From Candidatus Aenigmatarchaeota archaeon (GTDB lineage: Archaea > Aenigmatarchaeota > Aenigmatarchaeia > QMZP01 > QMZT01): a DNA stretch of 64,000 nt. A program made the translations under genes and the position numbers. This document shows, piece by piece, positions 2-18,538 of the stretch (within the stretch, counting starts at the first letter, position 1; every line of letters starts with the position of its first letter). The notes under the pieces were generated by a model. It was not told the origin of the DNA, did no database searches, and worked only from the letters and a program-made list of their open reading frames with translations. The stretch is from assembly GCA_963726265.1 (NCBI GenBank), contig CAVSBQ010000002.1, positions 64,001-128,000 on the forward strand. Reading direction: 5' to 3'.

Positions 2-5972
<5,971 letters not shown>

Positions 5973-17835: not shown

Positions 17836-17902
17836 CTATTTTATAAAGGATGCTTAAAGATAAAAACGGTATCTTTCCCGGACTCAGCCGGTTAAATAGG
17901 GA

Positions 17903-18120
17903 TGAGCGTGGGGGGATTCGGACCCCCGGCCTCAGGCTGAAACAGCGAAGGACGCGCGCTTCGCGCGCGTCGGCATGCCAAATCCCTGGCTGCGCTCCGC
18001 TTCTTCGATGTCATCAAGCATTCGAATCCGGATGCTTTCAATTCTTCTAAGCCTCGTTCCGCGCCAAGGCGCAGAACTGCATAGAAGACCCGCGCTCTAT
18101 CCAGGCTGAGCTACACGCCC
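17903..18120 (-). tRNA. tRNA-Arg(UCU) with a 143-nt intron at position 37/38 (intron 17939..18081)
   Basis: 5' exon GGGCGTG TA GCTC AGCCTGGATA GAGC G CGGGT CTTCTA; 3' exon A GCCTG AGGCC GGGGG TCCGAAT CCCCC CACGCTC A. The cloverleaf closes, the anticodon is TCT and the Arg identity base A20 is present. Confidence 0.88.
18008..18054 (-). ncRNA. Candidate intron-encoded box C/D-type guide module (guide, D-like box, K-turn)
   Basis: AGGCTTAGAAGA-A-TTGA-AAGCAT-loop-ATGCTT-GAT-GA-CAT; the first 12 nt are the exact complement of spliced tRNA positions 31-42. Confidence 0.65.
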
Positions 18121-18538
18121 GTGTGCGGTCCAGTGCAAACCCGCGCTACCGCATTAATTAGAATATGGGCGTCCTCATTAAAAACCTTTGCGGACGCAGC
18201 CGGCACGAGACACGTTATCAATAATATCTTCTCGGCGGCTCCGTTGCTGCGCCGCCTATAAATAAACGGCTGATGTCGTAAGGCGGATGAAAATTTTCAA
18301 CATAGCGGTTATCATTCATGAGAGGCGGCGGGCACAAGCATTCCCCGGAAAGCGGATGAGGGGTCGTCACTCTCCTGACCGTTTGCCTTATCGCGCTTAT
18401 CGCGCCGGATGGTTTGAACATAAGCATCACGTCAATTTCTAATATCTACTCTATAGCGCAAAAACCTTTAAATTCCTGACGGTCATGCAGGCTGCCGGAT
18501 ATATGGCTTTTTAAAGGTTCGCATCCAGTAGGTTCACC

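Follow-up and report, generated by a model that had tools for sequence, protein, structure and literature searches.

A conserved K-turn and guide in archaeal tRNA introns with the geometry of a box C/D guide for the wobble nucleotide

Introduction

Box C/D ribonucleoproteins (RNPs) 2'-O-methylate the target nucleotide that is paired to the fifth guide base upstream of the D or D' box (N+5). In the available text of two reviews (PMC7994747, PMC11408192), stand-alone C/D guides for tRNA position 34 are listed for tRNA-Met, tRNA-Leu and tRNA-Trp, and the pre-tRNA-Trp intron is the only intron-embedded guide named. This euryarchaeal intron (Haloferax, Pyrococcus sR50), as far as these sources describe it, carries its guide within the 37/38 intron of its own target, aims it at position 34 and competes with the splicing fold; its action in cis or in trans is presented there as debated. 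It is a full C/D plus C'/D' RNA with two guides, directed at C34 and U39.

Stand-alone Pyrococcus C/D sRNAs against tRNA-Met, tRNA-Leu(CAA) and tRNA-Leu(UAA) are described as aiming at that position by the N+5 rule as well; each is a gene of its own and has terminal C/D boxes. In synthetic half-mer or hemi C/D RNPs, the architecture is reduced to one K-turn and one guide. According to the available text of Hardin and Batey (2006; PMC1635284), earlier single-site constructs were non-viable, the reduced RNP was active and site-unspecific, and the bipartite two-motif architecture was needed for site specificity. Many introns at canonical and non-canonical sites, together with an epsilon2 EndA, are found in ARMAN-2 (Ca. 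Micrarchaeum); box C, sRNA, K-turn, L7Ae and methylation all go unmentioned in those ARMAN papers whose text was searched.

Here we analyse the intron of a tRNA-Arg(UCU) gene located in a 64,000-nt stretch of archaeal DNA, called the window below; positions are those of the window unless contig C2 is given. The genome that carries it, G000, comprises 1.13 Mb in 4 contigs, is 88% complete and has introns in at least 15 tRNA genes. Like the pre-tRNA-Trp guide, the element resides in its target's own 37/38 intron, points at position 34 and competes with the BHB fold. Unlike it, it consists of one K-turn and one guide, it is hosted by tRNA-Arg(UCU), tRNA-Gln, tRNA-Met, tRNA-Lys and tRNA-Glu of a Micrarchaeota-like lineage, and its match in G000 crosses the exon-exon junction. 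In contrast to the stand-alone sRNAs it is intronic and devoid of terminal C/D boxes. The one-K-turn, one-guide layout is that of the half-mer RNPs, which are however laboratory constructs, and the EndA and intron content resemble those of ARMAN-2. A literature search of main texts gave no description of an intron K-turn plus guide module; in the literature searched, no natural conserved single-site C/D guide was described either. From its sequence we rate the module as an apparent variation on the pre-tRNA-Trp intron guide, one not previously described in that literature.

Results

A guide and a K-turn in the tRNA-Arg(UCU) intron

The anticodon arm of the gene has the stem CGGGU/GCCUG, the loop CUUCUA|A and the anticodon UCU. 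In its default mode, ARAGORN did not detect the gene in G000, and its intron placement was unreliable; exons and intron are delimited as follows, all on the minus strand.

17903..18120, minus strand: tRNA-Arg(UCU) gene with intron, 218 nt (Rfam RF00005, 39.1 bits, model positions 1-71; anticodon-arm parse)
18082..18120, minus strand: exon 1, tRNA positions 1-37, U34 at 18085 (sequence and anticodon-arm parse)
17939..18081, minus strand: intron, 143 nt, at the canonical 37/38 site (sequence, anticodon-arm parse and ortholog comparison)
17903..17938, minus strand: exon 2, tRNA positions 38-73 (sequence and anticodon-arm parse)
18056..18077, minus strand: intron 5' hairpin with a 9-bp stem and UUGG loop (fold and ortholog comparison)
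18043..18054, minus strand: 12-nt guide facing spliced positions 42..31, with A18046 opposite U34 (sequence and pairing controls)
18038..18041, minus strand: D'-like box UUGA, following the one-base spacer A18042 (TTGA in 16/16 aligned modules; TCGA in G341 and G336)
18016..18037, minus strand: K-turn C-stem hairpin, 6 bp and a 10-nt loop, AAGCAT/ATGCTT pairing 18037..18032 with 18021..18016 (covariation)
18008..18015, minus strand: C'-like strand, made of the GAU bulge (GAT, 18015..18013), the sheared-pair GA (18012..18011) and CAT (18010..18008), in which C lies opposite U, A is the partner of box U1 and U that of the spacer A (sequence and ortholog alignment)
18003..18006, minus strand: GAAG, in short-intron relatives the BHB central helix with C32-C35 (G012: hBH, CTTC/GAAG)
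17939..18002, minus strand: 3' extension at the old 3' splice site (constrained fold and BLAST)
18153..18160, minus strand: A/T-rich box TAATTAAT, 33-40 nt upstream of the tRNA 5' end

Similar A/T boxes lie upstream of the orthologs, and TAATTAAT is possibly an archaeal TATA-like promoter element. The intron 5' hairpin is variable in sequence and missing from the short introns of other families. A coding reading of the intron was rejected, the overlapping ORFs all being at most 66 aa.

The guide 12-mer AGGCTTAGAAGA (also written AGGCUUAGAAGA) is read from 18054 to 18043. As the first-pass annotation of this DNA had claimed, it is the exact reverse complement of spliced tRNA-Arg positions 31-42; the pairing stops at both ends, with no match at the next base. 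It is followed by a single A, UUGA, the 6-bp stem AAGCAU/AUGCUU, the GAU bulge, GA and C-A-U. The annotation had also placed U34 at box +5, and the arithmetic is borne out: the guide base opposite U34 is the fifth one upstream of UUGA.

We assessed how readily such a match arises by chance. For that specific 12-mer within the 143-nt intron we obtain P = 7.9e-6, in line with the initial estimate of about 1e-5. Neither the 132 mismatched intron/tRNA pairs (maximum 10) nor the 165 K-turn-box controls (maximum 9, with 16 at 7 or more) contain a run as long as 12. Searching the G000 genome revealed no second exact target of the 12-nt guide and three one-mismatch targets, vs about 5 expected. With G.U pairs allowed the guide test becomes noisy: 35 of the 132 mismatched pairs show a run of at least 7, so the runs of 7-8 of the G000 Gln, Met and Lys guides are insufficient by themselves.

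Conservation and covariation among relatives

The tRNA-Arg(UCU) introns of relatives diverge except for a common core, which consists of the guide (GCUUGGAAGA or a variant), one base, UUGA, a variable stem-loop and NNU-GA-N-A. We found this module in 23 genomes of 7 families, including 14/23 genomes of the family of G000. A search pattern made of the exon-1 end, the guide and the box was run on the 371 genomes of the phylum sample; it was positive in 26 of them, vs none for a reversed-pattern control. Judged by context, 18 of the positive genomes have the match in a tRNA-Arg intron and 8 by chance. Additional Arg modules were found in G013, where the gene is split over two contig ends, and with a covariance model in G015, G133, G336 and G341; of the 30 matches listed for this Arg-trained model, 11 lie in non-tRNA, coding-like contexts. 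Taken by itself, the 13-mer pattern gives many chance matches in AT-rich relatives. A loose DNA pattern run collection-wide likewise returned chance matches, none with tRNA-Arg exon context among the matches listed.

The K-turn stem covaries. In an alignment of 16 modules, all four outer pairs of the C-stem (4/4) show double-sided changes and every cell is paired (100%); the score for covariation, 0.661, compares with 0.26 for shuffles, none of 500 reaching it, and with 0.06-0.21 for slid partners. A separate stem count gives 67/68 paired cells vs 16-36/68 when shifted, a figure that is partly so by construction because selection demanded at least 3 stem pairs. The bulge reads NNU in 17/17 modules, and box U1 is matched with A in 16/17 (15/16 in the 16-module alignment). 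Both tandem G.A pairs, formed by the box GA and the post-bulge GA, are invariant, and are continued by U.N and then U-A. The element possesses the C-stem, the 3-nt bulge, the tandem G.A/A.G pairs and the non-canonical stem of a K-turn; the relatives (bulge GAU, second GA) uphold the register in which the first-pass annotation had drawn UUGA, stem, bulge and G.A pairs. Furthermore, position 34 falls at N+5 in the register of longest pairing for 21/21 script-scored Arg orthologs. That annotation had staked its proposal on conservation of guide and K-turn in orthologous introns and on the presence of fibrillarin and Nop5 in the genome; these computational tests all came out in its favour.

Several relatives differ in their further tRNA introns. 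A second intron of about 39-45 nt lies in the D-loop of tRNA-Arg, after about position 20, in G002, G017, G012, G021, G014, G001 and G018 (loci L006, L008, L011, L012, L013, L014 and L184), and is absent from the tRNA-Arg gene of G000, G003, G004 and G005. A T-loop intron also occurs in G018, G009, G078, G339 and G343. Intron content differs inside one genus.

C/D machinery and class membership

G000 encodes L7Ae, Nop5 and fibrillarin. Its Nop5 is full length (368 aa), with residues 3-356 aligning to solved archaeal Nop5; presumably, some Sulfolobus entries of the PDB group that it matches hold half-mer RNAs.

The module shows the internal arrangement of archaeal C/D RNAs, with a D' box followed by a C' strand to form a K-turn (UUGA, stem, GAU-GA-CA) and a 10-12 nt guide directly 5' of the box whose fifth base faces the target (here 12 bp and U34). 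Terminal boxes C (RUGAUGA) and D (CUGA) are found neither in the G000 intron nor in orthologous introns of 35-39 nt, and the two-motif bipartite architecture is lacking: there is one conserved K-turn and no second, even in those 35-39-nt introns. The exonic CUGA at positions 41-44 was considered as box D and rejected, the paired bases being out of register. An Rfam scan of 17850-18200 with E up to 10 matched no C/D family and returned only tRNA and three weak unrelated matches. Elsewhere in the genome, a strict double-guide C/D sRNA pattern has a single match, at C2:649683-649737 on the minus strand (0 in 5 shuffles).

The module recurs in other tRNAs

The element is not confined to tRNA-Arg, since modules also occur in introns of tRNA-Gln, tRNA-Met, tRNA-Lys and tRNA-Glu. 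The best register places position 34 at N+5 in 9/9 Gln, 8/8 Met, 2/2 Lys and 2/2 Glu script-scored modules, which with the Arg orthologs makes 42/42 over five identities. In the Gln and Met sets of 10 loci, one locus each was missed by the script and is visible by eye.

In G000 itself, the introns of tRNA-Gln(UUG) (C2:959878-960002, L211) and tRNA-Met(CAU) (C2:167442-167570, L212) carry the same K-turn and a guide with 34 at N+5. The module of tRNA-Lys(UUU) (C2:840871-841013, L213) aims at C32, not 34, and tRNA-Leu(CAA) (C2:413777-413926, L214), with an intron at about 31/32, has by eye a K-loop version directed at C34. K-turn-like modules without an anticodon-loop guide are present in the introns of tRNA-Thr(UGU) (C2:236332-236482) and tRNA-Lys(CUU) (C2:475884-475992). 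Intron-containing tRNA genes of G000 total 2,148 nt and hold three strict modules, vs about 0.03 expected from shuffles. We also note that the tRNA-Thr(UGU) intron begins with UCGAU, a copy of positions 39-43.

Among relatives, the Arg-trained model also detects modules with register 34 in tRNA-Lys(UUU) (G339, G317) and tRNA-Glu(UUC) (G342, G343). The guides UUAGAAGA, UUAAAAGA and UCGAAAGA vary exactly where the anticodons vary between Lys or Glu and Arg. Co-variation extends to the pair adjoining the G.A pairs, where U.A becomes C-G in Gln and G-C or G.U in Met. The tRNA-Gln(UUG) of seven relatives (L218-L223, L229) has C33 instead of the near-universal U33, and some of the guides carry the matching G. 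Guide runs are short in many relatives, those of Gln amounting to 5-7 bp on the spliced form. For the same tRNA-Gln(UUG), Um34 has been reported in Sulfolobus, as far as the available source text goes.

Splicing geometry and the 3' extension

In short-intron relatives, the intron end NCGAAGAA|A gives a C32-C35/GAAG helix with an AA|A bulge, and GAAG stands 2 nt from the 3' splice site; in G012 it yields an hBH with the expected cuts. As the guide helix and the GAAG helix share exon bases C32-C35, they are mutually exclusive. In G000, neither a strict nor a relaxed BHB gives the expected cuts (39/182). There, the K-turn is separated from the 3' splice site by 72 nt, vs 10 nt in 9/17 orthologs, and 39-64 extra nt are located exactly at the 3' splice site in G000 (64 nt), G013, G017, G018 and G009.

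In a constrained fold of the G000 extension, GAAG pairs with the intron-terminal UUUC, AGCGGAG/CUUCGCU forms a closing stem, and two hairpins are present, one of them GC-rich (17971..17951). A nested-intron model was rejected: the sole BHB-like geometry (GAAG/UUUC) cuts 2 nt off and deletes A38 and G39. The GC hairpin has partial copies at C2:167575-167603 (93% over 29 nt) and C2:11411-11433 (96% over 23 nt), one of them just 3' of the G000 tRNA-Met gene. A similar hairpin with CUUUCGC is found in the G000 tRNA-Thr(UGU) intron and in the tRNA-Arg extension of G017. The hairpin is possibly a small mobile element.

The sole splicing endonuclease of G000 (398 aa) matches PDB 4FZ2 over its full length with E = 2e-108. 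This accession is given in a study of the three-unit epsilon2 EndA from ARMAN-2 (Ca. Micrarchaeum), an enzyme that cleaves strict and relaxed BHB motifs. It is plausible that the G000 intron is spliced by a broad-specificity EndA of this epsilon2 type.

Discussion

A minimal guide for U34

The tRNA introns of these archaea carry a real, conserved K-turn and guide with the geometry of a C/D guide aimed at the wobble base. We propose, with a probability of about 0.6, that the G000 intron encodes a C/D-type guide of minimal form, with a single K-turn, which directs 2'-O-methylation to U34 of tRNA-Arg(UCU). The single K-turn would have the topology of an internal C'/D' motif (UUGA, stem-loop, NNU-GA-N-A), serve as an L7Ae site and bring in Nop5-fibrillarin. 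Immediately 5' of UUGA, 10-12 nt would pair with the anticodon loop of the host, setting U34 opposite the fifth guide nucleotide, and the RNP would methylate its ribose. Because the guide and splicing helices use the same exon bases, methylation and splicing would have to take alternative folds, as in pre-tRNA-Trp. The main mechanistic objection comes from the single-site constructs, non-viable or unspecific in the available text of PMC1635284; possibly, two introns sharing one Nop5 dimer could answer it.

Alternative readings and the stage of action

The first-pass annotation took the mature tRNA as the sole substrate, which amounts to an excised, perhaps circular, intron RNP that methylates only spliced tRNA in trans, so that splicing licenses the wobble modification. 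The G000 guide suits such an excised intron, forming 12 bp with the spliced form vs 7 bp (then a U.U mismatch and 2 bp) with the precursor. Other observations on the same side are the lack of another exact genomic target and the guide GC opposite G39 and C40, kept in many guides of the G000 family (f1) where intron base 3 is variable. Across the 21 script-scored Arg orthologs, contiguous pairing is longer with the spliced form in 9, all of f1, equal in 6 and longer with the precursor in 6; the precursor runs are maximum values, as the count ignored steric limits of the hairpin loop. Inspected by eye, G303 pairs better as the spliced form and G013 as the precursor. Precursor pairing is longer or equal in 9/9 Gln, 6/8 Met and 4/4 Lys and Glu modules, and the G133 guide mismatches A38. 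Past position 37, what the guides match depends on the genome, being either exon 2 or the first bases of the intron; where the intron starts with AGC and so resembles exon 2 (G014, G105, G124), the two substrates are indistinguishable. The pairing core common to the relatives is confined to exon 1 (31/32-37), as would fit action in cis on the precursor. The junction-spanning match is thus real in G000 but no general property of the module family. Exclusive action in trans on spliced tRNA seems quite unlikely to us; for G000 alone, the pairing leaves precursor and mature tRNA roughly even as the stage at which a guide would act.

The module might alternatively be a structural or kinetic device that works without methylation: with L7Ae on the K-turn and a helix masking the anticodon, the pre-tRNA would be given its shape, its splicing delayed or ordered, or the intron stabilised. 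This would account for the guide-less K-turns in other G000 introns, for the K-turn GA that overlaps the BHB GAAG in G078, for the competition between guide and BHB helices and for the poor in vitro performance of single-site RNPs in the available text of PMC1635284. Against the guide reading, N+5 = 34 could be a by-product, as it is also expected from a loop helix that ends at the loop base 31/32 beside a structural K-turn. Further points against that reading are the missing terminal C/D pair and second K-turn, the lack of a match to a C/D family in Rfam, the short guide runs of many relatives, and, in G000, the guide-less K-turns, the C32-directed Lys module and the missing BHB. We still find it unlikely that structure is the whole explanation: the box-to-34 spacing is constant in all scored modules of the five tRNA identities, the box, bulge and pairing pattern are those of C/D motifs, and, in the available sources, the host tRNAs have known position-34 ribose methylation or wobble modification elsewhere. 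The G000 copy could also be a remnant in a gene that the 64-nt insertion at its 3' splice site has disrupted and that is poorly spliced or unspliced; its lack of a strict or relaxed BHB with the expected cuts and the repetition of the extension hairpin elsewhere in the genome would agree with this. Yet its guide is perfect (12/12) and its K-turn intact, extensions at the same site recur in the four relatives named above, and the EndA is of the broad-specificity epsilon2 type, all of which makes decay a very improbable account.

Implications for tRNA introns in the class

The reading as a single-K-turn C/D guide can be taken further, to a doubtful but specific scenario: this Micrarchaeota-like class would keep its tRNA introns because each holds a natural half-mer C/D guide for ribose methylation of position 34 of its own host, and the Arg guide of G000, having shifted to the exon-exon junction, would modify only correctly spliced tRNA, as a splicing checkpoint for AGA/AGG decoding. 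The hosts under this intron-retention reading would be Arg-UCU, Lys-UUU, Glu-UUC, Gln-UUG and Met-CAU, mainly split-box wobble readers. Elp3 was not found in G000 (best score 24 bits vs a cut-off of 350). Among the 151 sampled genomes of the class it is present in 71, with 1/11 in f1, and 0/8 and 0/5 in f5 and f6, respectively, of the order of G000. Family f37 (Elp3 in 7/8) and G105 carry both Elp3 and the module, so replacement of the Elp3 wobble pathway is not a general rule.

Should the modules indeed act as guides, no single-site C/D RNP would be known from nature before them. The only textbook example of a tRNA intron aimed at its own tRNA, in tRNA-Trp, would then be joined by a whole set of wobble-critical tRNAs in ultrasmall archaea, and there would be a concrete selective reason for keeping tRNA introns in reduced genomes.
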